From contig JBEKKK010000001.1 of the NCBI GenBank assembly GCA_050010755.1, positions 992,001 to 1,056,000 of the forward strand: a DNA stretch of 64,000 nucleotides. Direction: 5' to 3'. The stretch is from Candidatus Bathyarchaeia archaeon. GTDB lineage: Archaea > Thermoproteota > Bathyarchaeia > Bathyarchaeales > Bathycorpusculaceae. Positions 2,209 through 24,439 of this stretch are shown one piece after another. The notes under the pieces were generated by a model, which was given only the letters and a program-made list of their open reading frames with translations, was not told the DNA's origin and ran no database searches. Position 1 is the stretch's first letter; every line of letters begins with the position of its first letter. Position numbers and translations under genes: made by a program.

Positions 2209-2400
2209 ATGACGACGTTATGCTTTTCAGAACAGGAAATAGAAAGGTTATCTGAGTACAGCGGGCGCTTTCCGGAAAAGCCATTTACAAAGTGTTGTAT
2301 AAGGCCCTGTCCACGGTACCGTGCGATATTTCAATTCGCAAGGTATTCTCTGCTTGCATTCGAAGATTGCCGCCTCGAGTGGCGCGAGTGGGAACCATGA
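2209..2400 (+). CDS. Hypothetical small protein
   Basis: 63 aa ORF whose stop overlaps the next ATG (ATGA, 2397-2400). Confidence 0.35.
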   Translation: MTTLCFSEQEIERLSEYSGRFPEKPFTKCCIRPCPRYRAIFQFARYSLLAFEDCRLEWREWEP

Positions 2401-2624
2401 CGCACAGACGAACCAGAGAAAAAGAGCAGGTGAGACAAGCTCGCCGAATCATCCTTTCCAGCAGTTTCCATGACCGAGTGAGGTGCGAAAGAATCTGCAG
2501 AATGACCCGCACCGACGTTCTGGCACTGCTTAAGGAGCCAGTTCAAGTCGGCTCAGTGCCTGCACTTGAACGAGGCGAGGTCTTGGTTGACTCGCGCGGA
2601 AAGGGAAGCTTCCAAACAGAGTGA
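2397..2624 (+). CDS. Hypothetical protein
   Basis: Internal ATG of ORF 2292-2624; its stop overlaps the GTG of the next ORF. Confidence 0.4.
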   Translation: MTHRRTREKEQVRQARRIILSSSFHDRVRCERICRMTRTDVLALLKEPVQVGSVPALERGEVLVDSRGKGSFQTE

Positions 2625-3070
2625 TAACACAAGCCTGGGCCGGGGAGTTCTCAGAGTTGAAAAGAGCAGGTAAGGGGCAATCGTTGCGTGCCCGGCGATC
2701 TTTCAATGATGTGATGGCGGGCCGTATTTTTCAGATAAGGCGTCGCGTGAAGCTTGACACGCAGCAGCTACGCATGAAGACGATTAGGCAGTTGGAGCAG
2801 CTTTTCGATTTTGCTTCCGCAATCGCGCGTGGGCAGGTTCAGTATCAACGTTTGGAAGGGAAGATGCATCTTATCACGTTGAAGGAGCGGCAGGGTTGGA
2901 CGAGGGTCGCCGGGTACATCGCCCAGATCCTGCAGAACATTGGCAAAGGTTTTGATGAGAAGCAAGTTGATGAGGACCTTGCTGAACTGGAGAAGTTTTT
3001 GAATGAAACAATGCCAGAAGACCAGGCTAAAACGGTTGAAGAGGCAGCTGAAGGCGCGCCGTCCAAGTGA
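2621..3070 (+). CDS. Putative terminase small subunit (start may be ATG 2714)
   Basis: Helical protein immediately upstream of and overlapping TerL; positional assignment only. Confidence 0.55.
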   Translation: MITQAWAGEFSELKRAGKGQSLRARRSFNDVMAGRIFQIRRRVKLDTQQLRMKTIRQLEQLFDFASAIARGQVQYQRLEGKMHLITLKERQGWTRVAGYIAQILQNIGKGFDEKQVDEDLAELEKFLNETMPEDQAKTVEEAAEGAPSK

Positions 3071-4385
3071 ACCTTTGGAGATCCCCTCTGATCCAGCGAC
3101 GTTCGCCCTTCACGTTTTCGGGTTCAAGTGCAACGAGTACCAGGCGAAGCTTCTGCGAGATACTTCCAAACGTATTGTCGTGAGGTGGAGTCGACAGTCT
3201 GGTAAGACAACTTGTATCGCTTTGAGGGCGATTTGGTTTGCGCTTGTTCACCCGAAGACTCTAACGTTGATCGTGGCACCATCATTGCGACAGTCGATGA
3301 TAATGAGCGATAGGATTCAGGATTTTCTCGCAAGCTTGCCAAAGGAACGATATCTGCAAATGATTGAAAAGCTGCAGAGAGCCACGGTTCGTTTCAAGAA
3401 CGGCAGCCGCATCGTGGCCTTGCCTAACAGTCCTCAGCTCCTACGCGGATACACCGCCCACCAGGTTTTGCCTGATGAAGCAAACTTCTTCAGGGATGAT
3501 GACCTAGTCTTTTACGATATATTGTACCCGATGCTCAGTACTACGGATGGCGTTCTTATCGCGTCAAGCACGCCGTGGAATAAGGACAGCGTGTTCTACC
3601 GGATGACTCAGAGCAGCGAGTTCAGCAAGCACGTTGTGACCTGCGAGGACGTAGTTCGTAGCGGCCTTGTGAAACAGAGTTTCGTCGACGAGATGCGGGC
3701 TCAGCTGCCAGCGGAGCGGTTTCAACGTGAGTTCATGGCCGAGTTTGTTGAGGACATCGACGCTTGGCTGACGCAGAGCCTGATTGTCAACTGTATCGAT
3801 AGCAACTTGCAGCCATATGATTTTCAGGACACACTCCAAGGCGAGTTTTATGTCGGGGTCGATTTTGGGAAAGAGCAGGATTCCAGTGTGGTCCTGGTCC
3901 TTCAAAGAATCGGGAGTGTGCTCAAGATGGTGCACGTTCACCGTTTTCCACTGAAAACAGAGTATGCAAGCGTCATCGGCTACACGAAGAGTCTTCAGGA
4001 TCGCTGGCGGGAAATCAGGGCCGTTTACGCAGACATCACTGGCGTGGGAGGCTACATCGTTGAGGACATGGTTCGCAGCGGGATCCAGGGCGTCAACGGC
4101 GTAACCTTCACGGTGCAGTCGAAAGAAGAGATGGCCACGATTTTAAGGGAAAAAATGCGCTGCGGCGAAGTGAAAATTCCATACGTGCCGGCGACGAAAA
4201 TTCAAGACGTAGACTTGACTGCTGAGCTTAACATTGAAAAGTACGAGCTCATGAAGACCGGTCACCTTCGCTTCAGCCATCCAGATGGCTCACATGACGA
4301 CGTGTTTTGGAGCATGGCTCTGGCCGTGTACGGAGCGATTCAGGCCCCGTTGCCCGGCAAAGGCGTCGCATTCATACCACATTAA
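3003..4385 (+). CDS. terL: Terminase large subunit
   Basis: Walker A WSRQSGKTT, Walker B VLPDEANF, coupling motif SSTP, RNase-H-like nuclease residues GVDFG and HDDVFWS. Confidence 0.95.
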   Translation: MKQCQKTRLKRLKRQLKARRPSEPLEIPSDPATFALHVFGFKCNEYQAKLLRDTSKRIVVRWSRQSGKTTCIALRAIWFALVHPKTLTLIVAPSLRQSMIMSDRIQDFLASLPKERYLQMIEKLQRATVRFKNGSRIVALPNSPQLLRGYTAHQVLPDEANFFRDDDLVFYDILYPMLSTTDGVLIASSTPWNKDSVFYRMTQSSEFSKHVVTCEDVVRSGLVKQSFVDEMRAQLPAERFQREFMAEFVEDIDAWLTQSLIVNCIDSNLQPYDFQDTLQGEFYVGVDFGKEQDSSVVLVLQRIGSVLKMVHVHRFPLKTEYASVIGYTKSLQDRWREIRAVYADITGVGGYIVEDMVRSGIQGVNGVTFTVQSKEEMATILREKMRCGEVKIPYVPATKIQDVDLTAELNIEKYELMKTGHLRFSHPDGSHDDVFWSMALAVYGAIQAPLPGKGVAFIPH

Positions 4386-4409
4386 ACAAATGAACGAAGT
4401 TGAAAAATC

Positions 4410-4622
4410 ATGGAGACAGAAGTATTCATCGCTTCCTCAAGAGGAACTTTGAAAGCTCTCGGCATAGAGCTAGCGGGCGACATCAAAGACTTGCATATAC
4501 TCATAGACGGCGTTGACATTTCGAAAGTCGCGAGTTTCGAAGAAGTGAGAATCGTGCTGCGAAAAGAAGAGCAATCTTCGCCGCTCGCAGTCATTGTGAA
4601 GGAGAAAGAGAAAACACAATAA
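4410..4622 (+). CDS. Hypothetical viral protein
   Basis: 70 aa ORF filling the gap between terL and portal. Confidence 0.6.
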   Translation: METEVFIASSRGTLKALGIELAGDIKDLHILIDGVDISKVASFEEVRIVLRKEEQSSPLAVIVKEKEKTQ

Positions 4623-4636
4623 TCCGGTGAGTTCTG

Positions 4637-6070
4637 ATGCCGTTTAAAGCAGTGAAGCCAGCGGGCACTGTGCTTGCTCAAAGGGATGTACCTCCAGATA
4701 TCTCTGCGAAGCAGATTCAAGAAGAAATCCCGGTAAACTGGAGATATGACCCCGGTCTTTGGGGTTACCTGAACAAGTACGTGATTAAAGACTCAGGCGT
4801 CGGCTTCATAACTCCACCATACATTGCCTATTGGGAAAGGGTTTGGGGCGCCCAACCCATAGAGGATTTACCGAAGTACAAGGAACTCTACACGTTCACA
4901 CCCTTCATCAAGGCCAGCGTGGACGTCACCATTAACTTGATGATAAGCAACGGCTTCGAACTTGAAGGCGGCGATGACGACGTCAGAAGTTGGCTCACGG
5001 ACTGGCTTGATGAACACAATGTTCTGCAAACCTTGCGAGTCGTTTCAGCGGACATGTACATCTCTGGCAACGCCTACATAGAGGTTTGCAGAGATGAAGA
5101 CTCTGATGTTGACGATTGGTGGCTTAAGCCTCTTGATCCTGTTTACATGAGAGTGCGCAGAGACGCTTACGGCAATGTTTTCGGTTACATTCAACTGTTA
5201 ACCTTTCCACCAGTGACTTTTGAAGCGGAAGACATCATCCATTTCAAGTGGTGCCCCAAAAGTTGGTGGTACGAGTACAGCTACGGCACAAGCCAGCTTA
5301 GGCCCCTAATCCTCGTTCAAAGCCTGATTGATGATTTCCAGACGGACATGGCCACAATAATGAAGATTTACACGAAGCCTATGCTCATCGTCACCTGCGG
5401 CACACCGGACAGACCTTTCAGTGATTCAGCGTTATCAGGCGTTGTCCAAGCTTTTCAAAACAGAGACGCAGCCACAGATGTTTTCGTTAGAGGCGATGTC
5501 ACCGTCAAAACGATGACAAGCATGACTCGTGAGATTAACGTTCAGTGGTGGATTGACTACCTTCATAACCAGAGGAAAGCCGTGCTCGGAGTGCCAGAGA
5601 TTTTCCTTGGAGATTCAAAGGGCACAAATCGGGCCACTGCAGACATCGTGATGCAAGAGTTCGTTACACGCTTACGAATGGGGCAAGAATCTCTCGGAGA
5701 TACGCTTGAAACAGTTTTGTTCAAGCAACTTATAGATGCAAAGTTTGGCGTAGGCAAAGAGATTCCGCATTGCAAGTGGAGACCCATATGGGAGCCCACA
5801 ACTGGAGATAAGGCGAAATACTTAGATCTTCTCGTGAAGGACGGTGTTTCAGCCATTTCAGAAGCAAGGGCGCAACTCGGCTTTCCAGAAGAGTTCCCGG
5901 CAGAAGAGATTCCACAGTTGCAAGTGCTTCCTGAAAGAGTCGGTGTAAGCGTGACTCAGCAGGCAAGCGGCGGAACAGCCGTTCAAGAGATGCTTCCTCA
6001 GAACCAATCAGGCGGAACATCAGCTCAAATGCGAGTCAAAAGGAAGTATCTGATTGCCGAGGTACAGTGA
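4637..6070 (+). CDS. Portal protein
   Basis: 477 aa after TerL; SGNAYIEV, LKPLDP, DIIHFK, YGTSQL, LGVPEIFLG and ISEARAQLG are portal-like motifs; GGTGA RBS. Confidence 0.92.
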   Translation: MPFKAVKPAGTVLAQRDVPPDISAKQIQEEIPVNWRYDPGLWGYLNKYVIKDSGVGFITPPYIAYWERVWGAQPIEDLPKYKELYTFTPFIKASVDVTINLMISNGFELEGGDDDVRSWLTDWLDEHNVLQTLRVVSADMYISGNAYIEVCRDEDSDVDDWWLKPLDPVYMRVRRDAYGNVFGYIQLLTFPPVTFEAEDIIHFKWCPKSWWYEYSYGTSQLRPLILVQSLIDDFQTDMATIMKIYTKPMLIVTCGTPDRPFSDSALSGVVQAFQNRDAATDVFVRGDVTVKTMTSMTREINVQWWIDYLHNQRKAVLGVPEIFLGDSKGTNRATADIVMQEFVTRLRMGQESLGDTLETVLFKQLIDAKFGVGKEIPHCKWRPIWEPTTGDKAKYLDLLVKDGVSAISEARAQLGFPEEFPAEEIPQLQVLPERVGVSVTQQASGGTAVQEMLPQNQSGGTSAQMRVKRKYLIAEVQ

Positions 6071-6335
6071 TGCTCTTTTGGCTTGTGAGGTATTCAGAGC
6101 TTTCAAAGCAGCCACTGCAGGGGAAGAACAGGAATCGCCTACGACCACGTGGGCCTTCGTTGTGACTGGCGACAAGACATGTGAAGAATGCCAGAAGTAT
6201 AAGGATGACACATACGAGCTTGAGAACCCCGACGACCTGCTGGGCATGTTTGATTATGGCGAGTGGATTGACGAAGACACCTTCGCACCCAACATTCACG
6301 TCAATTGTGAGTGCACGATTATCAGAGTTGATTGA
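6054..6335 (+). CDS. Minimal MuF/SPP1 gp7-like head morphogenesis protein
   Basis: DKTCEEC...PNIHVNCEC matches the Cys/His C-terminal motif of MuF; follows the portal. Confidence 0.7.
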   Translation: MPRYSDALLACEVFRAFKAATAGEEQESPTTTWAFVVTGDKTCEECQKYKDDTYELENPDDLLGMFDYGEWIDEDTFAPNIHVNCECTIIRVD

Positions 6336-6336
6336 A

Positions 6337-6651
6337 ATGTCTGAAAAAGAAAATCCATTGTTTAGAGGCAAAACGGAGAAGGAAATTGATGAGTTCCTCA
6401 GGTTAGAGGGGGAGCTTATTGTCGAGCTGGATGCGCTTTCACCACCCATGAAACGCGCAATTCTTGATAATCTTAGACAAATTGCAAAGCTGCCACCTTG
6501 GATGCAGAGAATCCTTCTTGATGACATTAACACGGCCGCTGTCAATCGCATAGGCATCATGGTCACGATAATTCAAACTCAAAAGCAAAACGAGCAGCAC
6601 CCAACTTTCAGGATGGCGCGAGATGATGCACGTGAACGGAAAAAAGAATGA
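6337..6651 (+). CDS. Hypothetical viral protein, paralog of 21408-21614
   Basis: ATG 6337 just after the previous stop; contains LPPWMQRILLDDINTA. Confidence 0.65.
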   Translation: MSEKENPLFRGKTEKEIDEFLRLEGELIVELDALSPPMKRAILDNLRQIAKLPPWMQRILLDDINTAAVNRIGIMVTIIQTQKQNEQHPTFRMARDDARERKKE

Positions 6652-6931
6652 GAAGCTTGTGCAAATGGCATGCCCAGAGTGTAAAACCGTCTACGGACCG
6701 CAACCAATGATTTTGCTAATGAAAGATGGAACGAGTCAGCTAATCCACGAATTGCCGAGAAAGTGTTTGCGCTGTCATTGCAACCTGCAAAGATTCGCAG
6801 TTGAAATGCCGAGAGGAATGAACACTGCCAACACAATACTATCAAAGACAAATCATACCGCCGGGCATGATTTACCGCACGATGCAACAATACGGTCGCG
6901 AGATGCGCGCCCTGACATTAGCGCACATTGA
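6623..6931 (+). CDS. Zinc-finger-like viral protein
   Basis: CPEC...CLRC pairs. Confidence 0.5.
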   Translation: MMHVNGKKNEKLVQMACPECKTVYGPQPMILLMKDGTSQLIHELPRKCLRCHCNLQRFAVEMPRGMNTANTILSKTNHTAGHDLPHDATIRSRDARPDISAH

Positions 6932-7355
6932 AGCTTCAAAGATCCCTCCTGCCCCCGCAGTGCCTCAAAGAGAACTCAGCGTTTTATGGCCACGCATGCC
7001 TTGTCACACACTCTGCAGATACACGAATGAGATGCGCAGGCCACACGTAAGCTGCTGGTGGTTCTGCCGGCTCCGCAGATTCTTTTATGGCAAGCTCAGC
7101 AAGGATGAATACCACTATAATCCGCTCACGGGCATGGTAGTCACAAAAAACTTGAAGAACATGCGCACGCATGTCATACTCTTAACTGAAGAATACTTTT
7201 CCCCGAACTGCAGTTACGTCATGAACATTTTTACGAAAAGAAGGTTTGCGAGAGTTAAGGACATCCTCATGAACAAACTCTTCCAAATTTACAACGTTTG
7301 GTGGATCCCACACAAGAAGACGATTTTAACCATGTGTGAAGGACTGGCGAACTAA
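6867..7355 (+). CDS. Hypothetical viral protein
   Basis: 162 aa co-oriented ORF with a Cys/His cluster; abuts the next gene. Confidence 0.55.
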   Translation: MIYRTMQQYGREMRALTLAHIEASKIPPAPAVPQRELSVLWPRMPCHTLCRYTNEMRRPHVSCWWFCRLRRFFYGKLSKDEYHYNPLTGMVVTKNLKNMRTHVILLTEEYFSPNCSYVMNIFTKRRFARVKDILMNKLFQIYNVWWIPHKKTILTMCEGLAN

Positions 7356-7356
7356 T

Positions 7357-7683
7357 ATGGCAAACATCACAAACGAAAAAAACATGTGGAAATGCAACGT
7401 TCAAACCCTTGAAAAGTTTGACAAGATGCATGCAAAGCCATTTGTCGCAGGCGTGCAGGTTGTTATGGGAAGAGTTAAGGGCACAGATCGGTGGGAAATT
7501 CAAGGATTCACCTTTTTGAAGACTAACTTCAAGAGCGCTGAAGATTGCCGAGTATGGCTTGATTCCCATTTAAAGGGAGAAATCAAAACCTGCCTGGATT
7601 TCAAAGCTTGGAATGAATACAGGCGAAGGGCGATGAACGCATTCTTGCAAGTTGCGGAAGTCACAAATCACGGCAACGAATAA
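7357..7683 (+). CDS. Head-module protein resembling a domain often attached to phage prohead proteases
   Basis: GVQVVMGRVKG...EIQGFTF.K..F.SAEDCRVWLDSH pattern; lies between portal and protease. Confidence 0.5.
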   Translation: MANITNEKNMWKCNVQTLEKFDKMHAKPFVAGVQVVMGRVKGTDRWEIQGFTFLKTNFKSAEDCRVWLDSHLKGEIKTCLDFKAWNEYRRRAMNAFLQVAEVTNHGNE

Positions 7684-7695
7684 GAAGTTGAAAAA

Positions 7696-8304
7696 ATGTC
7701 TGAAACAATCTTTCTTGCAAAAGAATGGACATACAAGAAAAAGAAGAACCTTCCAAACTCTTCATTCGCCTATATGGACCCCCAGGACAAGGGGCATTTT
7801 CCATACAAGGATGAGAACGGAAAACTTGACGAAGCCCACATCAACAATGCATTCTCTTGGCTACCGCAATCAAACCTAAGCATGGATATCAAGAAGAAAA
7901 TACACACGAAACTTGTGAATGCCTGCAAGCAACTCGGGAAGGAACACAACAAGTGCAGCATACCCGGCTGTGAAGGCTACACACCGGCGAGCCAGAAAAG
8001 TTTCCTTGAAAGCGGTGCAACATTCTCCGCGCTGAGCGAAGAGGCAATGAGTCTTCAAAGTGACTGGACAAAGTTTGACCAGAAACGTGCAAAAGGTGGA
8101 AAGAAAACAAAGAGTGCAGCGCCTAAGAGTACAACGAAAAAGACAAAGGGCACGAGCAAAAAGAAAACAGGTAAGACGAAAACCAAAAAACCAAAAGTTG
8201 GAAAAACCAAGAAGACAAGAAAGAAAAGCCTTCTTGAAGAACCCACTTCGTTTTTGAAGTTAGCTTCAGAGTTTGACCAAATCAAAAGAGAGGCAGGTCT
8301 GTAG
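7696..8304 (+). CDS. Head-associated protein (DUF6582-like N-terminus) with a Lys-rich tail
   Basis: LPNSSFAY...HFPYKD...DEAHINNA motif, then a highly basic KKTK-repeat segment. Confidence 0.6.
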   Translation: MSETIFLAKEWTYKKKKNLPNSSFAYMDPQDKGHFPYKDENGKLDEAHINNAFSWLPQSNLSMDIKKKIHTKLVNACKQLGKEHNKCSIPGCEGYTPASQKSFLESGATFSALSEEAMSLQSDWTKFDQKRAKGGKKTKSAAPKSTTKKTKGTSKKKTGKTKTKKPKVGKTKKTRKKSLLEEPTSFLKLASEFDQIKREAGL

Positions 8305-8305
8305 G

Positions 8306-9559
8306 ATGGAATTGCATTATTTCATTCCGTTCAAGGCTCAAGGGGGCACAGATGCGCAATTCGCTTTGAGAGAGCATCTGCTCAATATTGAAGGTACGGC
8401 CATAGATACATCCGTGAATGCGAATAAATGGCAAGTACCGGCTGAAGACTTGGAGTTTCTTACACAGGGGCTAATCAACGCTCAGTTGAGAATCGACCAC
8501 GCTGAAAGCGCCATGGCCGTTATCGGAAAGGTCCCTGAGGCTAAGTTGTTCGCAGATTTGGGGCAAGTTTGGTTCCGTGCTGAAATCGGTGACTTGCCAA
8601 TCATTGAGAGAGTGTTGAAGGGCTATCTTGACCACGTTTCCATTCAGATTGACTCTGATGATGTGCAGTGTTCAAAATGCCTGCAGCAAACGCGCAAAGA
8701 GGGCATGCTTGTTCACCTTTGTCCTGATGCGTGGGAAATCGTTCATAAACCGAAAGTCAGGGAACTTAGCATCGTGGCGAGCCCTGCTTACAAGAACACA
8801 GACTTTAAGCCGGTAGGATTCGCAGCAGCTATGGATGCGAGTCAAACATGTAAAACTTACCCCTGCACAGGGAGCGAAGGTTGCGGAAGAAGAGGCTCAT
8901 TCGTGTGTGCGCTTCCACCGTTATCACCGTTATCGCAAGGTAACAAAGATGTGGGTTCTAAGGGAGACCTGCAAGAACCCGAAAACGAAAAGAAAACTTC
9001 AAGGGAGGTGAACTCCTTGCCTGAACAACAAACAGCTCAGCAAGCGAGTTCTCCACATAAAGCACAAGGCGTAGTCAACACGAACAACGGACAAGGCGAG
9101 AGCGCACCATCACAAGTGAATTACGCGGACTTCATGAAGGAGCTTGAAGGCTTGCAAAACCAAATCGCCTCAGACGACGCTGCAGAAGCGGATGCCATGA
9201 GAGCGAAGATTGCAGCCCTTCAGAAACAAGTTGCCAACAGGGCCACGAAACAGCAACTCGGCAAGAAAATCAGCGACCTTCAACAGCAGCTTGACTCTGG
9301 GAGTGGAGCTGCGGAAGACGCTGAGGAGCCAGATGGTGATGAGGATGGCACCACAAACGAAAATCTCGTGGACACGAGTGACGACGGCGCAGTTTCCTCA
9401 AAAACTTCGCACAAGGCCACAGGGAAAGGCATGATTGGCACAGATGCCGAACGTAACCAACCAGGCATGGCTGGTGAAACAACGATGAGCGTCTTCGGCA
9501 ACATTGACTGGTTCAAAGACGTCGCCAAAGCCACGGCCAAGTTAAAGGGCATGAGATAA
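8306..9559 (+). CDS. Prohead protease with C-terminal scaffold
   Basis: IEGTAID, LRIDH, VIGKV, VSIQI, CxxC insert and RELSIVASPAY, followed by a coiled-coil/acidic C-terminus. Confidence 0.85.
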   Translation: MELHYFIPFKAQGGTDAQFALREHLLNIEGTAIDTSVNANKWQVPAEDLEFLTQGLINAQLRIDHAESAMAVIGKVPEAKLFADLGQVWFRAEIGDLPIIERVLKGYLDHVSIQIDSDDVQCSKCLQQTRKEGMLVHLCPDAWEIVHKPKVRELSIVASPAYKNTDFKPVGFAAAMDASQTCKTYPCTGSEGCGRRGSFVCALPPLSPLSQGNKDVGSKGDLQEPENEKKTSREVNSLPEQQTAQQASSPHKAQGVVNTNNGQGESAPSQVNYADFMKELEGLQNQIASDDAAEADAMRAKIAALQKQVANRATKQQLGKKISDLQQQLDSGSGAAEDAEEPDGDEDGTTNENLVDTSDDGAVSSKTSHKATGKGMIGTDAERNQPGMAGETTMSVFGNIDWFKDVAKATAKLKGMR

Positions 9560-9569
9560 GGGGATTACA

Positions 9570-9986
9570 ATGGCAACTCCATATGCTAATCTCGAAGGTC
9601 AAACCCCGCTTGCCTCCGACCGCTTCATCATAACCCTAATGGCTGGCGCTGCAATCACATATGGGCAATTGCTGTACCTCAACGGCACAGACTTCACAGT
9701 AGCTCCCGCACCAGGCACGGCGAACTTAACCACCATAATCGGCGTCGCCATCGCCACTAGAGCATCTGGAAAAACTGTTCCTGTTGCAACCATGGGCGTT
9801 CTTCGACTCAAGGCTTATGGTTCAATTAGCGCAGGAGACCAAATTTGCTCAGCGAGCGGCGGCACAGCAGGTGTGGGCCTAATACAGTCTGACACAGGGG
9901 GCGCAGCTGCAAAGAACGCCACTGTTATTGGTCAGGCTTTGCAGGCTATCGTAAGCGGCGGTACTGGATTCTGTGTTCTCTGGTAA
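9570..9986 (+). CDS. Capsid decoration/cement protein
   Basis: Gly/Ala-rich beta protein (AGAAITYGQ...IGVA...ISAGDQI...VIGQALQA) directly before the capsid gene. Confidence 0.75.
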   Translation: MATPYANLEGQTPLASDRFIITLMAGAAITYGQLLYLNGTDFTVAPAPGTANLTTIIGVAIATRASGKTVPVATMGVLRLKAYGSISAGDQICSASGGTAGVGLIQSDTGGAAAKNATVIGQALQAIVSGGTGFCVLW

Positions 9987-10003
9987 ACCTAGGGTGAATT
10001 GAC

Positions 10004-10897: not shown

Positions 10898-10904
10898 GCA
10901 CCAA

Positions 10905-15869: not shown

Positions 15870-15912
15870 TTTCCACAAACGAGTTGCAAAACTTAAACGA
15901 AGCTTGAAATTT

Positions 15913-15998: not shown

Positions 15999-16017
15999 TA
16001 GAAACGAGTTGCTTTTC

Positions 16018-16374: not shown

Positions 16375-16378
16375 GAGC

Positions 16379-16912
16379 TTGGACAAGTGGCTTAAGTTGA
16401 AAATTGCAAAGCATTTGATTAACCCCATGGTGCGAGTGCTCAACCTACTTATCCCAGACAGTGTTGGTGTTTATCCTCAAACCAAAATTCTTGGGAAGGT
16501 TTACGCCGACTTGCTGCACGTTTACAAGATTGAAGCGTACTGCGGGCGGTTTGATGATATCCCAAAGGGCACACTTGAAGCGCTGAAAGACAAGAACTTT
16601 CTTCGCTTTCTGCAGCTTTCTGGGAAACTGCTGATTTATCTCGGAGACACGGACCGATACTATCGCGCATGGCTTGGGCTTTTCTTTCTTCTTGTGCGCG
16701 ACCACACGGAAACTTTGCCACTCGCTAACGCTGGGCAATCTGTTGAAGCACAGTGGGATTATCCGGTGTGCGAAGAAATCTTTCAAAAATATGCAAGTGT
16801 CGCCGAAAGGGAAGCAAGGCAAATCGTTCTTGCGAACCAACTTTACAACCTTGTCCAATTAACCCTGAATCGAGGTGATAAAAACCATGAGCACTCCACT
16901 AATAGGTCGTAA
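16379..16912 (+). CDS. Hypothetical viral protein
   Basis: 177 aa co-oriented ORF with a GGTGA RBS and TTG start. Confidence 0.65.
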   Translation: MDKWLKLKIAKHLINPMVRVLNLLIPDSVGVYPQTKILGKVYADLLHVYKIEAYCGRFDDIPKGTLEALKDKNFLRFLQLSGKLLIYLGDTDRYYRAWLGLFFLLVRDHTETLPLANAGQSVEAQWDYPVCEEIFQKYASVAEREARQIVLANQLYNLVQLTLNRGDKNHEHSTNRS

Positions 16913-17285
16913 CGCCGTTATAGAGATGAGCGCAGGCTCAGCGGTCGTAATCGGCTTCGCGCAAGGCTTCACAGATGAAACGGACGCGGACTTAATCAAA
17001 GAGTTCGCTTTGGGCAGCGACCACGCGGCAATCTTGGCATCTGGGAACAAGCACTTCAAGTTTAACATCGACAAGATGTTCATCGACAAAACTTATCAGC
17101 AGTACGTGTACGGAGGCACAAACGTTGACATAATCGTGGCCCCACAGGGCACATCGTCAGGTAACCAAAAATGGACTTACAAAAGTTGCGTACTAACACA
17201 ATCTCAAATGAAGGCTGACCAGAAGGGCATCATAGCCGAAAAAGTTGTAGGCGAAGCGAGTGACGTCATAATAGGTTCCTTCTAA
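16887..17285 (+). CDS. Major tail tube protein
   Basis: GAGGTGA RBS; 132 aa beta-rich protein (GRNAVI...IGFAQG...GNKHFKFNIDKMFID) before the chaperone and tape measure; followed by a CCCCGCTTTTTT terminator. Confidence 0.75.
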   Translation: MSTPLIGRNAVIEMSAGSAVVIGFAQGFTDETDADLIKEFALGSDHAAILASGNKHFKFNIDKMFIDKTYQQYVYGGTNVDIIVAPQGTSSGNQKWTYKSCVLTQSQMKADQKGIIAEKVVGEASDVIIGSF

Positions 17286-17341
17286 ACTCTCCCCGCTTTT
17301 TTGGGGATTTCGCAATAATCAAACTACTTTGAGGTGAAAAC

Positions 17342-17755
17342 ATGAGTGAAGAAATTAATTGGGGAAAAGTCACAGAGATGGAGCAAGTCTTGCAGAAGGA
17401 TGATGAGGAAAAGCTGAAGCGCGTCCGCGTCTTCAACCCGAAAGAGCTTGTCAAGAGAGCCAAGGAAATCAGGGAACTTTACGATGATGACTTAGGCGTG
17501 ATACGATATAAACTACTGACATACGCGCAGCTAAACGAAATCATGGAGAAGCATCCTGAGAACAAGGATAGGAGCATGCAGCTTCTATTCAAAATGCTCG
17601 CACCGGCGAGTGAGGGCTTAACTCTTGAAGACATCAAAGCCATGCCATACGAAGTTGTCGCGCGCCTCTTAACGAAGCTGACGAAGGAAGGCAGTTTTTT
17701 TCCTCAGAAGCAATCGGCGAATGGGTCGGCTGCGACTCCATCGCCCAAACCGTAG
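17342..17755 (+). CDS. Tail assembly chaperone (gpG-like)
   Basis: Between tail tube and tape measure; slippery T-TTT-TTT near the 3' end. Confidence 0.8.
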   Translation: MSEEINWGKVTEMEQVLQKDDEEKLKRVRVFNPKELVKRAKEIRELYDDDLGVIRYKLLTYAQLNEIMEKHPENKDRSMQLLFKMLAPASEGLTLEDIKAMPYEVVARLLTKLTKEGSFFPQKQSANGSAATPSPKP

Positions 17756-17868
17756 GGTTCGTGGCTCATGAATACGGCTACACCCTACAGCAAATAGGCG
17801 AACTAACCCCGTTTCAAATTCGTTTCCTTGTCGAGTGGGCAAAATGGTTTTACAAACAGAAAGGTTAG
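17695..17868 (+). other. Programmed -1 frameshift site and gpGT-like extension
   Basis: AG-T TTT TTT-C at 17695-17701; the -1 frame reads SSEAIGEWVGCDSIAQTVGFVAHEYGYTLQQIGELTPFQIRFLVEWAKWFYKQKG to TAG 17866-17868. Confidence 0.8.
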
Positions 17869-17874
17869 GTCAAA

Positions 17875-19461
17875 ATGAGCAGCAACGAAATTGACATTCA
17901 GCTAATCGCATATGACGAAGCGTCGTCTGTGATTGAGAGCGTCGGCACTAACCTTTCCACAACCTTCACAGACATTGAGGGTAACACGCAAGACCTTGCA
18001 ACCTCAACTGATGACGCGACAAGCCAGATTTCCGCAAGTTACACTCAAGTCGGAGAAGCTGCCCAAAATGCTGCTGATGAAACTGAATCTGCAAACATGA
18101 GCTGCTCAAGCAGTGCATCATCCATGAACAGCGCGGCAATGGCTGGCATGATGCTCTACATGAGCTTCAACAATCTGGAGAACGCAGAGATTTCACTTCA
18201 GAAAGCTCACTTAACAGTTGAGAAAGACACATTAGCCGTCACTAAAGCACAGGAAGCCTACAATGCCGCCGTCGCCAAGTACGGCCCAGATTCCCAGCAA
18301 GCGAAAGACGCTGCCCAAAAACTCTCAGATGCACAAGGAACACTTCAAATCGCTGAGGAAAAGGTTGGCGAAGCTCAGAGGAATGTTACCAACTCGATGG
18401 TTATGGCCGCTCTTACCGTGATTCCAAGCTTAATCGCAGTCATAAACACGGTTTCAAACGCAGAGGACATCTGGGAGGGGATACAGTGGGCCTTGAATGC
18501 AGCGATGGATGCGAACCCAATCGGTTTGATTTGTCTCGCCATCGGTGCGCTTATTGCCGTTATCGTTGTGCTCTGGAATTACTGCCCACCGTTCAGAGAC
18601 GCCATAATTGAAGTTGGTAAAGTTCTTGGCGGAACGTTAAAAGAAGCTGTTGAAGCAATCACCGTTGGGCTTGAGTGGTTCTGGAAGAATGTTCTTGAAC
18701 CGCTTGGAAACTTCATCAAAGGGTACATGATCACAGAGATTAATGTGCTTTCCACTGTTGTAATGTTCTTGTGGAATAATGCCTTCAAACCACTTGGAGA
18801 CTTTTTGGCAGGTGCTTTCTACACAAGTATCAAGGTTATTTCAGACATCGTTAATTTTATGTGGGGAAGCGTACTCAAACCTTTTGCAGACTTTCTAATC
18901 GGCGCGTTTGAGGATGCTTGGAAGGGGCTTTCTGATATTATCCAGTGGTTTTACAATCTTCTGAAGCCCATCTTTGACGCCGTTGACACAGCTGCGAAAG
19001 CTCTTGGCGGCTTCGTTAAAGATGTTAGCGGAGCCATGGATAAGGCGGGTGGTGCGATTCAAGGCTTCATCAAAAGCGTTTGCTTCGCTCATGCTCTCTC
19101 AGATGCTGCTGACAGCAGTGAAAAAACTATGAAGAATTGGACGGGCATGGTTGACGATAGCATGAACAAGGGCCTCAAATCCATCAAAGACTTCAACGCG
19201 CAAGCTCAGATAGGCGGAACGGGAATGTCAGGCTCCATATCTGGCATGGGAGCTTTGCCGACAGGAGCGCAGAAGCCTACAACCGTGAACATTGAAACGA
19301 AGGCGCCTCTTATCAATATTGAAGGTAGCGCGGATAAGGCCACAGTTGATGCCGCGTCAAAGATGCTTCTTCAGCAGCTTAAAACGATTATTGTCGAGCC
19401 CACAAGCTCAGCAGCTGCGGCGACTCAGAAAAGAATCCGCTCAGGGAGTGTGTTTAGATAA
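17875..19461 (+). CDS. Tape measure protein
   Basis: 528 aa helical protein; N-terminal IDIQLIAYDEAS, ALNAAMDANPIGLI motif, periodic W/F repeats. Confidence 0.9.
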   Translation: MSSNEIDIQLIAYDEASSVIESVGTNLSTTFTDIEGNTQDLATSTDDATSQISASYTQVGEAAQNAADETESANMSCSSSASSMNSAAMAGMMLYMSFNNLENAEISLQKAHLTVEKDTLAVTKAQEAYNAAVAKYGPDSQQAKDAAQKLSDAQGTLQIAEEKVGEAQRNVTNSMVMAALTVIPSLIAVINTVSNAEDIWEGIQWALNAAMDANPIGLICLAIGALIAVIVVLWNYCPPFRDAIIEVGKVLGGTLKEAVEAITVGLEWFWKNVLEPLGNFIKGYMITEINVLSTVVMFLWNNAFKPLGDFLAGAFYTSIKVISDIVNFMWGSVLKPFADFLIGAFEDAWKGLSDIIQWFYNLLKPIFDAVDTAAKALGGFVKDVSGAMDKAGGAIQGFIKSVCFAHALSDAADSSEKTMKNWTGMVDDSMNKGLKSIKDFNAQAQIGGTGMSGSISGMGALPTGAQKPTTVNIETKAPLINIEGSADKATVDAASKMLLQQLKTIIVEPTSSAAAATQKRIRSGSVFR

Positions 19462-20492
19462 TGGTGCTCTTAGCTGAACAGGAAAGACTAATCGCTCAAG
19501 AAGCAAACCTTGTGAATGATGCGACCCAGTATGCAGCTACAACTGCAAGCTGGGTACTTCTGAAAGACTGGGGCAACATCACAATGCCCGCAGATGGCAT
19601 TCTACTCATAAAGTTTGACAGTTTCCTTGACACAACAGGGGGAAGCGGAGCCATAAGAATCAAGGTTGGCTCATATTACGTGCTCACATCTTGGACAAAC
19701 TTGGCAACTTCTCAGAGCTTTGGCACGGCAATCTGGCTTGCAGCCGGCACGTATGATATTCAAGCAGCTGGATACTTGAATGGCGCAGGAAGCAATTATA
19801 ACGTTTACCTCAAGAATTTCCAATGCGGCCTCACAGCCTTTAATGACGCCGTTGGCTCATCTGTGCACACATACAGCAGCGGAACAAGCTTAACGGTGAA
19901 TAACAGGAACACGCCAGCAGGGCCCCTTCAGCAAGCCACATATTTTGTTCAAGTTTACGCGGTCACATCTGGCGCCTCAACAACTCTTGAGAATATCGGC
20001 AACAATTACACAAACGGAGTCAGCATACTTGTTGATGGCGTGCAAGTCAACTGGAGCGAAGTTATCCCTGAAGAAAGTGGCAGCTCAGGAGGCACAACAG
20101 GGAAAATCAGCTTACCATACAACGTAGACCTTAGTCACACGGTCACTATAAGCAAGAGAAATGGTAGCACGGCCGTGACCATTAGCGTGATTGCATGCCC
20201 TTGGATTTTATCTTCAACTTTCGGCATCCCTGTGAACATTTACTTTAGTCAAGGTAGCACGCTTTATTGCATGCTTGAACCTTGGTATCTTAACCCTTCA
20301 ACAAAGTTCACAGGGGTTGGAGCCATTCATGGAGTCACATTCGGAAACGCGGATGACTTCTACAGCAGCATCACGGGAGCTGACCTTCAAGAGTTCAGTT
20401 ACATGATGGACATTGTGGACATTAACAACAATAATCTGATGGCTTCCGGCCTAGGCGCTTGTATCGGAGTCATCGCCGTGGATGCAAGGTGA
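19461..20492 (+). CDS. Tail-tip / minor tail protein
   Basis: Beta-rich Gly/Ser/Thr protein translationally coupled to the tape measure gene. Confidence 0.6.
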   Translation: MVLLAEQERLIAQEANLVNDATQYAATTASWVLLKDWGNITMPADGILLIKFDSFLDTTGGSGAIRIKVGSYYVLTSWTNLATSQSFGTAIWLAAGTYDIQAAGYLNGAGSNYNVYLKNFQCGLTAFNDAVGSSVHTYSSGTSLTVNNRNTPAGPLQQATYFVQVYAVTSGASTTLENIGNNYTNGVSILVDGVQVNWSEVIPEESGSSGGTTGKISLPYNVDLSHTVTISKRNGSTAVTISVIACPWILSSTFGIPVNIYFSQGSTLYCMLEPWYLNPSTKFTGVGAIHGVTFGNADDFYSSITGADLQEFSYMMDIVDINNNNLMASGLGACIGVIAVDAR

Positions 20493-20496
20493 TAAG

Positions 20497-21315
20497 ATGC
20501 CAACTTTTGGAAACACAAACTCGGGCGTGAACAGCCACGGAGAAAGCGCAAACGCAACTCATGGCGGAGTATTCTCGCTCTCACAAGCAGGTATCGTGAC
20601 AGCCCTGATCTTGTACTGTCAGATTCCAAACGGAGTACAAGTGCAATGCGCCGTTTACCGTGACAGTACTTTAGCATATGTGGGAAAAACCCAAACAGTC
20701 ACGGGCACAGGAGCAGCTGCAGCCTTTGTGCAATTTAGCTTCAGCGGAAATGGCCTTCAACTTGACGCGGATACTTATCAACTCTTGTTCAACGCATCTA
20801 GCAGTTACACGGCCTACGATAGTAGCTCATCAGGTGGCACACCTGTAAACTCGGTAACGGAAAATTTTGGCACGTGGCCGAACCCTGGCACATGGACACA
20901 TGCAAGTTCAGCCCTGAACTGGTGTATTTATGGCTCGTACACAGCGAACTCAAGCGTGGGTGTGATGCTTGATGGGCAGGCTTTAACAGTTCAAAAATGG
21001 TCTGAATCTTGTGCAGCTCAGGGAAGCAATTGGGACGCTTGGTATGGTGGTCAGTACAAACGAAAAGTCAAAACCTATGGCATCGTCCGCACGTACACGC
21101 TGACTTTTCTTGAGTATAATGTGTCATGGGCGAACAGTCTTGCCAACCTATACGAGCAGGACTGCCAGAATGGAAACGTCGTGACATTTTACAGCGACAC
21201 CGCTCAAAGGCCCGTGAACAGCGTGAGCGTCAACGTTTTGGACGTCACGTTTGACATGGAAAACCTTGCAGGACAAAACGTGCGAATCGTAACAGTAACA
21301 ATTCAAGAAGCATAG
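20497..21315 (+). CDS. Tail-tip protein, possibly with a distal-tail-like C-terminal domain
   Basis: GGTGA RBS; beta-rich; C-terminal KRKVKTYG.VRTYTLTF...VTVTIQEA. Confidence 0.55.
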   Translation: MPTFGNTNSGVNSHGESANATHGGVFSLSQAGIVTALILYCQIPNGVQVQCAVYRDSTLAYVGKTQTVTGTGAAAAFVQFSFSGNGLQLDADTYQLLFNASSSYTAYDSSSSGGTPVNSVTENFGTWPNPGTWTHASSALNWCIYGSYTANSSVGVMLDGQALTVQKWSESCAAQGSNWDAWYGGQYKRKVKTYGIVRTYTLTFLEYNVSWANSLANLYEQDCQNGNVVTFYSDTAQRPVNSVSVNVLDVTFDMENLAGQNVRIVTVTIQEA

Positions 21316-21407
21316 GAGCACTTTCGAACAGCTGGGCAAGATAACATTCGCAGGTCACGGTTCAAGAGGCACAATTTTCGCGAGTATCTGGTTATGAGGT
21401 TTGAAGC

Positions 21408-21614
21408 ATGGTAGAAGTTGATATTCTGGAAAATTTCGGACGAGAGGCCGAGCTGCGAAAGAAATGGTTAAAACAGTGGCAGCTGCTGGGGACTCGAATA
21501 CTGCGATTTCCCAAGTGGATGCAGACCATCATTCTGGAAGACGTGAACACCGCGATTGAGAACAGAGCGGCCACAATGGAAATGATACTACGCAGCAAGA
21601 AACATTCGACCTGA
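21408..21614 (+). CDS. Small helical protein, paralog of 6337-6651
   Basis: FPKWMQTIILEDVNTAIENR; GAGGT RBS. Confidence 0.7.
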   Translation: MVEVDILENFGREAELRKKWLKQWQLLGTRILRFPKWMQTIILEDVNTAIENRAATMEMILRSKKHST

Positions 21615-21618
21615 AGGT

Positions 21619-22017
21619 GTGGAAGAAATGAAACGAAAAATCGAAGACGAAATCAGACAGCTCAGCCCTGGAGATCTCTGTTGCATCGACTGGTACGACG
21701 CCAGCATCGGCAAGAGTTTGAACAGCGGCATGGCCGTTGACGTGCCGGTGAAGAGCTGGGGCATTTTCGTGGGCGCGATGGGCCAGAGGAGCAAGCACAT
21801 TATTCTCGCCCAGAACAATTTCAGATATTCAGACGGTATGTACGACATCGACTACACCGCCGTGCCGGTTGCATGGACAATCGGGATCACAGTAATTCTC
21901 AAGAACTACCTCGCCTCGGATGACGTTAAGCATTTGCTTAACAGTTTTCTCATCGGCGGCAGGCGCACGGAAAGGAAGTTTCAGCAAAGGGCGTGTAACC
22001 ATGGAAGACTGGGTTAA
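21619..22017 (+). CDS. Hypothetical viral protein (possible small beta-barrel)
   Basis: PGDLCCIDWYDAS...KSWGIFVG; co-oriented and tightly spaced. Confidence 0.65.
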   Translation: MEEMKRKIEDEIRQLSPGDLCCIDWYDASIGKSLNSGMAVDVPVKSWGIFVGAMGQRSKHIILAQNNFRYSDGMYDIDYTAVPVAWTIGITVILKNYLASDDVKHLLNSFLIGGRRTERKFQQRACNHGRLG

Positions 22018-22267
22018 GCGGGCTCTCACCAGAAAGGGGCATCGCAAAGGCGCGCGCGGAGCTTTTGAAGACTTCGAGATCACACCCAACGAAGAGCTTG
22101 TTTATGGTGTCAAGTTTGCAATAGGCATGACAGTCTGCCTGAGCGCCATTGAAATTGCGCACATGGCCTTTCTACACAGCTGGAACAGCGAAGTGTTCAC
22201 TGCGATGACAGGTCTGACAGGATTGGTGACTGGCATCCTCATAGGCCATCGTGTTAGCGCGTGCTGA
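22001..22267 (+). CDS. Small two-TM membrane protein (holin-like topology)
   Basis: ATG 22001; basic N-terminus then two hydrophobic helices. Confidence 0.55.
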   Translation: MEDWVKRALTRKGHRKGARGAFEDFEITPNEELVYGVKFAIGMTVCLSAIEIAHMAFLHSWNSEVFTAMTGLTGLVTGILIGHRVSAC

Positions 22268-22376
22268 CGAATCAAGTGAAAATCCACTCTCAGCAAGCAT
22301 AACAGCCCTCAGCGAACTGAGTTCCCCCCTTTTCATTGTTTTAATTCTCCTTCCCAGTTGCTAGTAGGTGTGAAAG

Positions 22377-23849
22377 TTGAGAAGACGAAAAGAATATTTC
22401 AGGATTCGACGCCTTGCCAGGCGCTACGATCGTAAGTCCGGTAAATTCACCATCAGCGTATCGTATGAAACGGCAACTCCGAAACCTTCAGACAGGGTTG
22501 TTGCAGTTGCCGAAGGCTTCGGCCTAGGCTTGGACAAGTGGGAACGGTTCGTAATCTACGACAACGTCCAGATTTCTATCTCCCAGACAGACATCGTCTA
22601 TATCACGGGTGACAGCGGCAGCGGCAAGAGTGTTCTCCTGCGAGCGCTGCTCAAAGATTTGGGAGACGAGGCAGTCGACATGAACGCTATTCCCATCGAC
22701 TCTGCCCGGCCGCTCATCGAAACTGTCGGCAAGACAGTTGAAGAAGGACTGGAGCTTCTCAGCCGAGTTGGCTTGAACGATGCTTTCCTATTTCTACGCA
22801 ACTACGATCAACTCTCGGATGGTCAACGCTACAGATACAAGATTGCCAAGCTCATTGAAAGCGGCAAACAATTCTGGCTCTTTGATGAGTTTTGTGCCAC
22901 TTTAGATCGGGATACTGCGAAGATTGTTGCATTTAACGTCCAGAAGCTTGCGCGGGCCCTTGGAAAGGCCGTCGTTGCGGCCACGACTCACATGGATCTC
23001 TTCGAAGACATGAAACCTAGCGTTCACGTCCACAAACGTTTCGGCGAAGAGATATCCATCAAATATTACCCGAACACCGCTGCACAAGAGTGCAGCCTGA
23101 TGGCCGAGATGCGTGTCGAAAAGGGCACAACAAAAGAGTGGAAAAAACTCGCCAGCTTCCATTATCGATCCCATAGGGCCGGTGCAGTTCGCAAGATTTT
23201 CTGCTTGAAACGCCGCGACGAGGAACTATGCGGTGTGATTGCCTATTGCTACTCGCCGCCCGAAGCTTACGGACGCAGAATGGTCCTCCCAAGAATGACT
23301 ATAGGGGAAATCAACCAAAAGCTCAGCATCATCAGCCGCGTCGTCGTGCACCCAAAGTACAGAACGATAGGCCTCGGCCGCCGGCTAATCCAAGAAACCC
23401 TGCCTCTCGTAGGAACGGAGTACGTCGAGATGCCAGCCGTCATGGCAAAATACAATCCCTTTGCCGAGCGCGCCGGCATGCGTAGAATAACTGAGCAGCA
23501 CCCCTCAAAAGATGTCCTGAAAATTGTAAATGTCCTTGAAGAAGTCGGGTTCAAGGCTCAGTTGCTCGGAAGCCAGAATTACGTTTTCGATGTCCTTCGA
23601 AATCTCAGCAGTGCCAACCTGGAAAGAGTCAGGGAGGCCTTCGCGAAAGGTGGACACGTGCGTTTCCTGAAATATTTCAGCTCTGATCTTCCATTCGGCC
23701 ACAAGGAAGAATACAAGGAAGCCGTCAGAACTGCGGATCTAGTGAAGCTCGCGGGGCTCATCAAGATCTGCGGTTTTCTGTTGCAGACAAAAGTCTACCT
23801 TTTTTGGCAGCGCCCTAAACGCGCGCTTAAAAGAAGGAAAAAGTGTTGA
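22377..23849 (+). CDS. ABC-type ATPase fused to a GNAT acyltransferase (COG2401-like)
   Basis: Walker A GDSGSGKS, signature LSDGQ, Walker B WLFDEF, H-loop ATTH; GNAT motif A ISRVVVHPKYRTIGLG. Confidence 0.88.
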   Translation: MRRRKEYFRIRRLARRYDRKSGKFTISVSYETATPKPSDRVVAVAEGFGLGLDKWERFVIYDNVQISISQTDIVYITGDSGSGKSVLLRALLKDLGDEAVDMNAIPIDSARPLIETVGKTVEEGLELLSRVGLNDAFLFLRNYDQLSDGQRYRYKIAKLIESGKQFWLFDEFCATLDRDTAKIVAFNVQKLARALGKAVVAATTHMDLFEDMKPSVHVHKRFGEEISIKYYPNTAAQECSLMAEMRVEKGTTKEWKKLASFHYRSHRAGAVRKIFCLKRRDEELCGVIAYCYSPPEAYGRRMVLPRMTIGEINQKLSIISRVVVHPKYRTIGLGRRLIQETLPLVGTEYVEMPAVMAKYNPFAERAGMRRITEQHPSKDVLKIVNVLEEVGFKAQLLGSQNYVFDVLRNLSSANLERVREAFAKGGHVRFLKYFSSDLPFGHKEEYKEAVRTADLVKLAGLIKICGFLLQTKVYLFWQRPKRALKRRKKC

Positions 23850-24439
23850 GAAAACAAATAGGCGTGTCCGTGGATGCCCAGGTCTGGAACGGCTATCGAG
23901 AGGTTTGCACGCGTGAGAAACTTTGGCCCGTTGAGCCAATTGAAGAATTTCTCAAGTTTATCCTGAGGAACGGTTCAGCCCTGACAGCCATAAGCATGTT
24001 TCAGAGTATGGCAAGGGTGGAACCAGCGGCTTTCGAGACATATGCTCGAGTGTTACTCAACTGGTACAAGACGGGCCGATATTGGGTTCACGTGACAGAT
24101 GAGGTTGAAGCTCCCGTGGAACAAATGTTGCTACATTCCTTGAAGGACGTTGCCGACCCTCGTTTGCGCAACCAGATACAGGAAACTCTCATTAGCCCTC
24201 ACAAACGCTCAAGCCACAAGAATAGGAAAAGATTGATTGTAAACAATACTGCCGCCAAAGGAGAACCGCCAATCGAAATTGCACCTTCCGCCACGTCAGA
24301 AAGAATACAAGAAATCAAAAAACGAATCACCGGTCGGACCATGAACGCTGAAAAGGCAAAAAGAATGTTAGAGAAGATACATGAGATCCGAGAAAAACTC
24401 AGAAGTGACGAAAAAGACCGAAACAGGAAACGTGGATAA
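23843..24439 (+). CDS. Putative ribbon-helix-helix DNA-binding protein
   Basis: N-terminal RKQIGVSVDAQVWNGYREVC...IEEFLK strand-helix-helix pattern; basic C-terminus. Confidence 0.55.
   Translation: MLRKQIGVSVDAQVWNGYREVCTREKLWPVEPIEEFLKFILRNGSALTAISMFQSMARVEPAAFETYARVLLNWYKTGRYWVHVTDEVEAPVEQMLLHSLKDVADPRLRNQIQETLISPHKRSSHKNRKRLIVNNTAAKGEPPIEIAPSATSERIQEIKKRITGRTMNAEKAKRMLEKIHEIREKLRSDEKDRNRKRG

Follow-up and report, generated by a model that had tools for sequence, protein, structure and literature searches.

The window analysed here is a stretch of 64,000 nucleotides (G000:C1:992001-1056000) from a 2.19-Mb, eight-contig, 93% complete genome of the Bathyarchaeia, and near its left end it carries a cluster of head-tail virus genes at 2209-24439. 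The original prediction, made from the letters alone, took this cluster either for a domesticated system resembling a gene transfer agent (GTA) or for a provirus whose early genes lie further left or have been lost. The cluster is the intact particle-building (late) half, together with cargo, of a common integrating tailed virus of Bathyarchaeia, and we consider it probable, at roughly 0.7, that it is a grounded provirus of a temperate, siphovirus-like family of Bathyarchaeia head-tail viruses, stranded in the chromosome and probably unable to excise.

Throughout, G000 denotes the genome of the window, G001-G004 its four congeners, and G041-G044, G046 and G047 records of IMG/VR; negative coordinates are positions left of the window's start on contig C1 of G000. 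Genes were named by Pfam and PHROG profile searches, with PADLOC and NCBIfam scans added for the open reading frames (ORFs) of the viral island. Structures of the tail tube and protease candidates were modelled from 15-sequence alignments and then compared by fold. Conservation counts refer to 89 stored related sequences, some of which are overlapping pieces of one record.

The late gene module

All plausible genes listed within 2209-24439 lie on the + strand, and the predicted single-strand block of packaging, head, neck and tail genes proved to be present, intact and apparently functional, with open, full-length frames. Relatives were found for 29 of the 33 sense ORFs listed, and most of the conserved ORFs align over 95-100% of their length. 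An HK97-fold major capsid protein (MCP), a portal protein and a large terminase subunit (TerL) are encoded together, and connectors, a tail tube and a tape measure protein make up a tail module, the gene content of Caudoviricetes.

The packaging operon opens with a conserved small gene (2292-2624), found in 58 of the 89 related sequences and always just upstream of the terminase genes. It continues with a probable small terminase subunit (TerS; 2621-3070), so named from its position and conservation (55 of 89, coverage 0.99), which overlaps the start of the TerL gene and has no Pfam, PHROG or PDB sequence match. TerL itself (3003-4385) matches PF03237 (E = 2.4e-13) and PHROG 2 (E = 7.6e-38), and the portal protein (4637-6070), aligned in relatives at a coverage of 1.00, matches Portal_Mu (PF06074) above the cut-off and PHROG 9232 (E = 8e-24). 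The next gene encodes a small head protein (6054-6335) with a weak resemblance to the C-terminal motif of MuF (E = 9e-4, below the cut-off) and a conserved position; variable small ORFs follow it at 6181-6931. That the overlapping small ORFs of 6054-6931 are a single frameshifted gene was considered and rejected, since tblastx finds the same small ORF in relatives and gives no sign of a frameshift.

Three conserved ORFs (6867-7355, 7336-7683 and 7696-8304) are placed in the head module by synteny in relatives. For the ORF at 8273-9559, a probable prohead protease with a scaffold-like tail, a PDB sequence search gave no match above chance level. Its alignment contains invariant His and Ser columns. 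In the structural model (pLDDT 47 overall, 60-80 across residues 36-170) only the N-terminal domain is interpretable, and its best fold match is the T4 gp21 protease, with a middling score (Z 7.8, rmsd 4.1, 132 residues aligned). Fold and alignment together give moderate evidence for a prohead-protease-like N-terminal domain followed by a long coiled coil. Directly downstream lie a cement or decoration (or scaffold-like) head protein (9570-9986; PF09956, E = 1.3e-7, above the cut-off; PHROG 673) and the MCP (10004-10897; PF25209, E = 1e-6; PHROG 544, E = 4e-12), which finds nothing beyond chance-level matches among PDB sequences.

A variable insert (11025-14421) occupies the boundary between head and connector genes. 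It holds a 237-aa ORF, present in three of the 89 related sequences, and an 856-aa right-handed beta-helix protein (11851-14421; PF13229, E = 2.5e-15), present in nine; in a further genome, G229, the insert is missing at the same place. The beta-helix protein is likely to be a fibre, spike or depolymerase, to judge by its profile match, and the interval between capsid and connector genes is an unusual position for such a gene.

The head-tail connector genes at 14487-15203, 15200-15418 and 15411-15869 are named by conserved synteny, and that at 16009-16374 by its match to the gp10/Neck1-like connectors (PHROG 5, E = 1.2e-11). The tail tube protein (16875-17285) is identified by profile and fold: it matches the major tail protein of PDB 8gtb (E = 0.0075), and its model (pLDDT 75.5) has a siphophage tail tube as its top Foldseek match (E = 2.5e-5, TMq 0.56). 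Tube chains of RcGTA also match this model, as any tube does. On either side of the tube gene, 16379-16912 and 17342-17755 are by position candidates for a tail terminator or chaperone. The tape measure protein (17875-19461) matches several PHROG tape-measure families, down to E = 2e-15. Since no sheath family was seen among the Pfam and PHROG matches of the module, the tail would be non-contractile. Distal tail or baseplate genes and small ORFs follow at 19461-20492, 20482-21315, 21408-21614, 21619-22017 and 21920-22267; they are named by position and conserved in relatives, have no Pfam, PHROG or NCBIfam match, and a PDB search with 19461-20492 gave nothing above chance.

The last large gene, a hallmark of the virus family, encodes an ABC-type ATPase fused to a GNAT acetyltransferase (22377-23849), as named by Pfam and PHROG. 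It is 60-82% identical in G001, G041, G042, G044, G229 and another genome, G239, and the fusion falls in large, about half-viral Atlas clusters. A terminal ORF (23843-24439) shares its first 7 nt with the end of the ATPase gene; it gave no Pfam, PHROG or Atlas lead, and its relatives adjoin the element's end in G001 (48%) and G229 (49%). As a separate observation, G239 (L143:1407-1775), G041 (L099:9679-9918) and G043 have a second, fragmentary copy of the 3' end of the ATPase/GNAT gene a few kb further on, with inserted genes between gene and fragment; in G041 these are two extra integrase genes. Other elements seem to use this 3' end as an insertion hotspot or att site.

Integrating relatives and the missing ends

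Related elements are common in IMG/VR, where 35 loci hold a TerL relative, mostly at 67-83% identity, and 20 an MCP relative at 57-91%, the best match (91%) being at locus L073. Of 26 related loci in species-representative genomes, 25 come from records titled Candidatus Bathyarchaeota or Bathyarchaeia, which fits the host that had been guessed from the sequence. The tyrosine integrase profile PF00589 has a match in each of five IMG/VR records, over the cut-off in four; these were chosen as the longest related ones, a sample biased by length.

Four of the relatives, G041-G044 (32-38 kb, CheckV completeness 93-100%), resemble the window's element closely. They share its gene order (small conserved gene, TerL, portal, MCP, connectors, tube, tape measure and ABC-ATPase/GNAT), with TerL at 68-78% and MCP at 72-75% identity (G044 gives no MCP match) and an ATPase 60-65% identical to that of the window in G041, G042 and G044 (G043 holds a 35-residue fragment only), and they too carry variable cargo rich in restriction, modification and defence genes. 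G041 (38.3 kb) has colinear homologues for 20 of the 23 sense ORFs of window 2292-23849 (TerL 78%, portal 69%, MCP 72%, ATPase 65%). A direct repeat of 34 nt (67-100 and 38162-38195) bounds it, overlapping a tRNA-Ser gene, and a 438-aa integrase lies beside the repeat. In G044 (33.8 kb, TerL 68%), a perfect repeat of 27 nt adjoins the integrase and bounds the element; no tRNA gene was found in G044, and its repeat matches the 3' end of a tRNA-Leu gene of G000. Close relatives with a colinear module are thus demonstrably integrating elements.

The window's copy differs from these relatives in two respects. G041-G044 carry a tyrosine integrase, and G041 and G044 an att repeat pair, whereas the window's copy has neither. 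Their cargo lies beyond the ATPase gene, in about 10 kb between it and the integrase (including C5 methylases, Vsr, GmrSD, a HaeII-type enzyme, RelA/SpoT, ParB_N and resolvase-like nucleases), whereas that of the window lies upstream of TerL. One further IMG/VR record, G046, has the same sequence as window -2505..24439. Classed as a provirus, it lacks an integrase, and CheckV rates it 78% complete, which fits about 8 kb missing in comparison with the 32-38-kb relatives.

PF00589 has three matches in the whole of G000, the nearest about 100 kb from the cluster; tblastn with the integrases of six relatives (E <= 10) found no integrase-like sequence in C1:975000-1025000, and the Pfam, PADLOC and NCBIfam scans found no recombinase family among the island ORFs. 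G000 encodes one MCM, on contig C2, and no Prim-Pol. Neither the window nor the 20 kb to its left contains a tRNA gene; the next 20 kb further left, checked for tRNAs and by the whole-genome searches, holds one tRNA-Arg gene. The longest exact direct repeat across the flanks is 13 nt, a length within the 12-14 nt that shuffled sequence reaches, and exact-word, blastn, tblastx and repeat searches of flank against flank gave no repeat above chance. The element, then, has no integrase within it or at its edge and no att direct repeats bounding it, and the initial impression that an integrase, MCM, primase and tRNA att site are missing was borne out by Pfam, tblastn, tRNA and repeat searches.

An integrase, replication module and att pair just upstream, which the original prediction had named as evidence against a GTA, were looked for and not found; an ORF scan of the 20 kb left of the window gave no integrase, replication genes or tRNA. 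Since none of these was found in the DNA left of the window, the integrase and att sites appear to be lost or scrambled rather than out of view. The proposal of a provirus accordingly survives in one of its two forms: early genes lying to the left are not there within 20 kb, whereas their loss agrees with an integrase and att that appear to be gone. The possibility that the missing half lies elsewhere in G000 was rejected, as tblastn with all ORFs of seven relatives found no second half; it returned two TerL paralogues, an unrelated integrase locus on contig C2 and two genes at C1:1430991-1432490.

The missing replication genes carry less weight. Complete IMG/VR relatives likewise show no MCM, primase or polymerase by Pfam, so the gap is not diagnostic; a lack of recognisable replication genes is a trait of the virus family and no mark of domestication. 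A head-tail cluster without integration or replication genes is what a GTA would present, and the viral relatives look alike in this respect, so that the observation does not discriminate.

Head-tailed viruses and proviruses of Bathyarchaeia are already in print. 'Fuxiviridae' and 'Kunpengviridae' have been described, with a Fuxivirus genome of 31,982 bp and an integrase in Kunpengvirus (PMC10848311), and eight head-tailed proviruses of Bathyarchaeia have been published (PMC11705971). Compared by their descriptions, these viruses share Caudoviricetes hallmark genes and small genomes with the element of the window (PMC10848311, PMC11705971).

Extent, cargo and host flanks

The element extends beyond the cluster as first delimited. 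A gene of 127 aa lies 4.8 kb left of the window (G000:C1:987221-987604). G001 (63%) and G047 (88%) have homologues of it upstream of TerL, and the genes between it and TerL differ in each of G000, G001 and G047; in eight other genomes, weaker homologues (28-34%) immediately precede the packaging genes. Because this conserved gene bounds differing cargo, the defence-like patch, which the original prediction had described as abutting the cluster on the left, is present but is cargo in a variable slot inside the element and not a neighbour. The boundaries 2209-24439 hold for the module; the element as a whole spans at least -4779..24439, about 29 kb, and reaches at least 4.8 kb left of the window's start (G000:C1:987221).

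The 20 kb left of the window contain a type IV pilus-like operon, surface proteins and the defence-type patch. Within the patch, the cargo at G000:C1:987635-991917 (L001:15635-19917) comprises an SRA-HNH nuclease, a SIR2-like protein, a DUF262/GmrSD_N protein and a type II methyltransferase. The DUF262/GmrSD_N gene follows the SIR2-like gene with a 1-nt overlap and matches PADLOC NsnA (E = 8e-18). In the cargo region of the window itself, an ORF at 1-569 on the - strand, which runs 78 nt beyond the window's left edge, matched nothing in Pfam, PADLOC or NCBIfam. On the + strand, 690-971 encodes a small winged-helix DNA-binding protein of ArsR/Csa3-like type, a possible regulator (HTH_20, E = 1.6e-4, below the cut-off; Csa3, E = 2e-6; PHROG 4278, E = 9e-8). 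The neighbouring + strand gene at 1105-2142 is a candidate defence-type effector whose C-terminal part resembles LmuA of Lamassu (E = 4e-10, residues 195-297) and Avs1a (E = 2e-6, far below the cut-off); no relative of it was found in the related elements compared. The composition of the island is that of the genome, except that the cargo genes are lower in G+C (0.41 over the defence-type stretch against 0.477 for the genome).

On the right, the cluster adjoins, as predicted, a host cation-diffusion-facilitator (CDF) gene on the - strand (24653-26011; PF01545, PF16916), with orthologues in all four congeners and a syntenic block in G002 and G004. Host synteny with these two genomes stops at about -8190, after the pilus operon, and resumes at the CDF gene at 24653. 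In G002 and G004 the pilus and CDF blocks have other neighbours, orthologues of C1:1317-1322k and C1:397-402k, and in all four congeners the two blocks are on different contigs. The island therefore sits on host rearrangement points, which could explain its lost ends and also leaves a small chance of misassembly. That a virus or provirus contig was misjoined into this metagenome-assembled chromosome is nonetheless highly improbable, the separation of the pilus and CDF blocks in the congeners being set against a 1.44-Mb contig without N, an island composition that matches the genome outside the low-G+C cargo, related elements integrated in many genomes and the identical IMG/VR provirus record, which is perhaps not independent.

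Distribution, decay and standing of the element

The family is widespread and patchily distributed. At a cut-off of E <= 1e-20, 37 of the host family's 332 genomes (G000 included) have an MCP relative, among them 20 of the 169 high-quality genomes; they fall in eight of 70 genera, with up to four matches per genome; the best of these matches (73-76%) are in genus g57, not in the genus of the window. A closer survey of 40 relatives plus G000 found TerL relatives, mostly at 35-50% identity, in 25 of the 41 genomes and MCP relatives in five. Among the congeners, an MCP is present in one of four (G001), at another locus. Neither TerL nor MCP occurs in G002 and G004, which are 97-99% complete and syntenic at the CDF flank, and G003 has TerL fragments with stops only. 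G001 (77% complete) carries a syntenic copy of the module, with TerL at 83% identity, about 137 kb from its CDF gene; relative to an intact close relative, there are five single-nucleotide indels in its MCP gene and four in its portal gene, and none in TerL over 1,379 aligned bases. Assembly error may account for these indels, but it would be oddly confined. Since the nearest TerL is in a congener but the nearest MCPs are in another genus, the module is mosaic.

We favour a grounded provirus since the integrase and att pair, which bound complete relatives, are missing from this copy. On this account, an integrase would once have been present and then been lost by deletion or rearrangement; the element, deprived of site-specific excision, would be replicated passively with the chromosome, and the benefit to the host may lie in its defence cargo. 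If the late genes were expressed, the terminase would cut at a chromosomal pac or cos site and fill heads, and such in-situ packaging would take up the element and adjacent host DNA, an accidental, GTA-like effect resembling lateral transduction. In no other sense could the element behave like a GTA. As reported for bacteria, grounded prophages have likewise lost excision functions while keeping many genes and carrying defence cargo (PMC6379469), and late-excising prophages that package in situ from a chromosomal pac site likewise move flanking host DNA by lateral transduction (PMC8575938). Those cases are bacterial and experimentally tested (PMC6379469, PMC8575938), whereas here grounding is deduced from the sequence of an uncultured archaeon.

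Several observations weigh against this account. The element retains no trace of an integrase or att site, their past presence being deduced from the relatives, and several island ORFs lack a family explanation. The full-length late genes, with dN/dS of 0.08-0.19 against relatives (dS being near saturation, and saturated for several pairs), are not what long neglect predicts. This ratio reflects mostly time spent as a virus; the comparison, which had been suggested as a check, does not separate the readings, as such values are expected of viruses and GTAs alike. Integrases are also scarce beside related loci. In five well-assembled genomes, PF00589 matches lie within 30 kb of three of the seven MCP loci; at a fourth, tblastn picks up similarity to the relatives' integrases (199 residues, 44% to that of G042) that PF00589 does not report. 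Another 21 genomes hold 25 close TerL loci, three of which have an integrase within 31 kb on the same contig among the matches listed, a count to be read with 19 weaker matches besides those listed, several short contigs and some loci that are remnants or solitary TerL genes. G229 holds an intact, colinear, full copy with no integrase and no flanking repeat. G239 holds an intact 24.3-kb copy, without a Pfam integrase inside, between two 164-nt direct repeats of 94.5% identity (G239:C1 region 1725001-1785000, positions 17631-17794 and 41791-41954). Given that integrase-less copies are common, the loss may be selected, or another recombinase may serve.

The latter possibility, that the element is still a functional temperate virus with nothing missing, moved by an unrecognised recombinase or by host recombination, we regard as unlikely. 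The intact late genes and the ORFs without a family match on either side of the module would suit it, as would G239, whose copy has a PIN/MazE pair and ORFs of 181 and 309 aa next to the repeat and may encode an unrecognised recombinase. Neither of the G239 end ORFs has a homologue in G000, however; at 127-215 aa, the unassigned island ORFs of the window are short, and none matches a recombinase family; the island is not bounded by a direct repeat, both of its ends lie at host rearrangement points, and relatives with clear ends use ordinary tyrosine integrases.

If it is instead selection that keeps such copies, Bathyarchaeia would repeatedly retain intact integrase-less elements (the window's, that of G229 and perhaps that of G239) because their particles package chromosomal DNA from an in-situ pac site. 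We think this quite improbable; if true, it would mean an archaeal, recurrently arising exchange of genes, GTA-like or by lateral transduction, in an uncultured and globally abundant lineage.

A domesticated GTA-like system, with the head-tail module retained by the host as a means of packaging and exporting host DNA, is very unlikely. VTA of Methanococcus voltae is such a chromosomal head-tail morphogenesis cluster without integration or replication genes. The same is reported of RcGTA-type agents of Alphaproteobacteria (PMC5721377, PMC5026251), and an intact late module lacking integrase, att and replication genes, the low dN/dS and the other intact integrase-less copies in G229 and G239 would all be in keeping with a GTA. 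The copy in G229 could even be an old insertion shared with G000 and then rearranged, since orthologues of its flanks lie within about 100 kb of the window's copy, those of its right flank at window 40060-45319. A common insertion site was nevertheless rejected at fine scale, as both flanks of the G229 copy differ from those of G000. GTA clusters are described as inherited vertically across a whole host clade and as packaging pieces too small for the cluster (PMC5721377, PMC5026251), whereas the element of the window is patchy in distribution and incongruent with its host, on which grounds the original prediction would itself have given up a GTA. The search for synteny in related genomes that it had proposed found the module in one of four congeners, elsewhere and with MCP and portal genes frameshifted, which is not vertical inheritance. 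As to control of particle production by the host, the one candidate regulator nearby is the small winged-helix gene at 690-971. Several copies in some genomes, mosaicism of the kind seen in viruses, colinear relatives that are integrating viruses and complete yet equally devoid of replication genes, and a TerS candidate and defence cargo typical of prophages all argue in the same direction.

As a grounded provirus, the element is ordinary, if well preserved, and its value lies in annotation. The gene map is now fixed for a head-tail virus family common in Bathyarchaeia genomes and in IMG/VR, and the neighbouring defence genes are prophage cargo. The lineage also offers a series of decay, from complete proviruses through integrase-less intact copies and frameshifted copies to deletion remnants and solitary terminase genes, the last two being found in several genomes. 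Should the integrase-less intact copies be kept by selection, this would bear on gene exchange among uncultured archaea of sediments and soils.

G000 itself contains two extra TerL genes with open frames, at C6:36839-38200 and C1:786122-787465 (both on the - strand; 72% and 34% identical to that of the cluster), which stand alone among host genes (LPG synthase, KH/RIO/eIF-1A, glutamate dehydrogenase and PGK). Solitary intact TerL genes occur in other Bathyarchaeia genomes too (loci L114 and L117), and the comparison of the C6 gene with L117 gives a dN/dS of 0.04, with dS near saturation. The TerL gene, the one free of indels in the decayed G001 copy, seems to persist when the rest of the virus is lost.

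A crude scan (at least four exact 20-mers at 50-90 nt spacing) found no CRISPR array in any contig of G000. Two other loci of this genome resemble parts of the relatives. At G000:C2:59432-64464, a 4.9-kb element by tRNA-Leu(GAG) encodes a 317-aa tyrosine integrase, 40% identical to that of G044; the 3' end of the tRNA gene, about 24 nt, is repeated at the element's far side, and the element has no match to TerL or other proteins of the cluster. This is a minimal integrative element or else the integrase end of a provirus that has lost the rest by deletion. At G000:C1:1430991-1432490, with no other virus gene or tRNA nearby, a winged helix-turn-helix gene and a 162-aa gene are 74-89% identical to the last two genes inside G041 and G044, and may be a remnant of the regulatory end of another related provirus.

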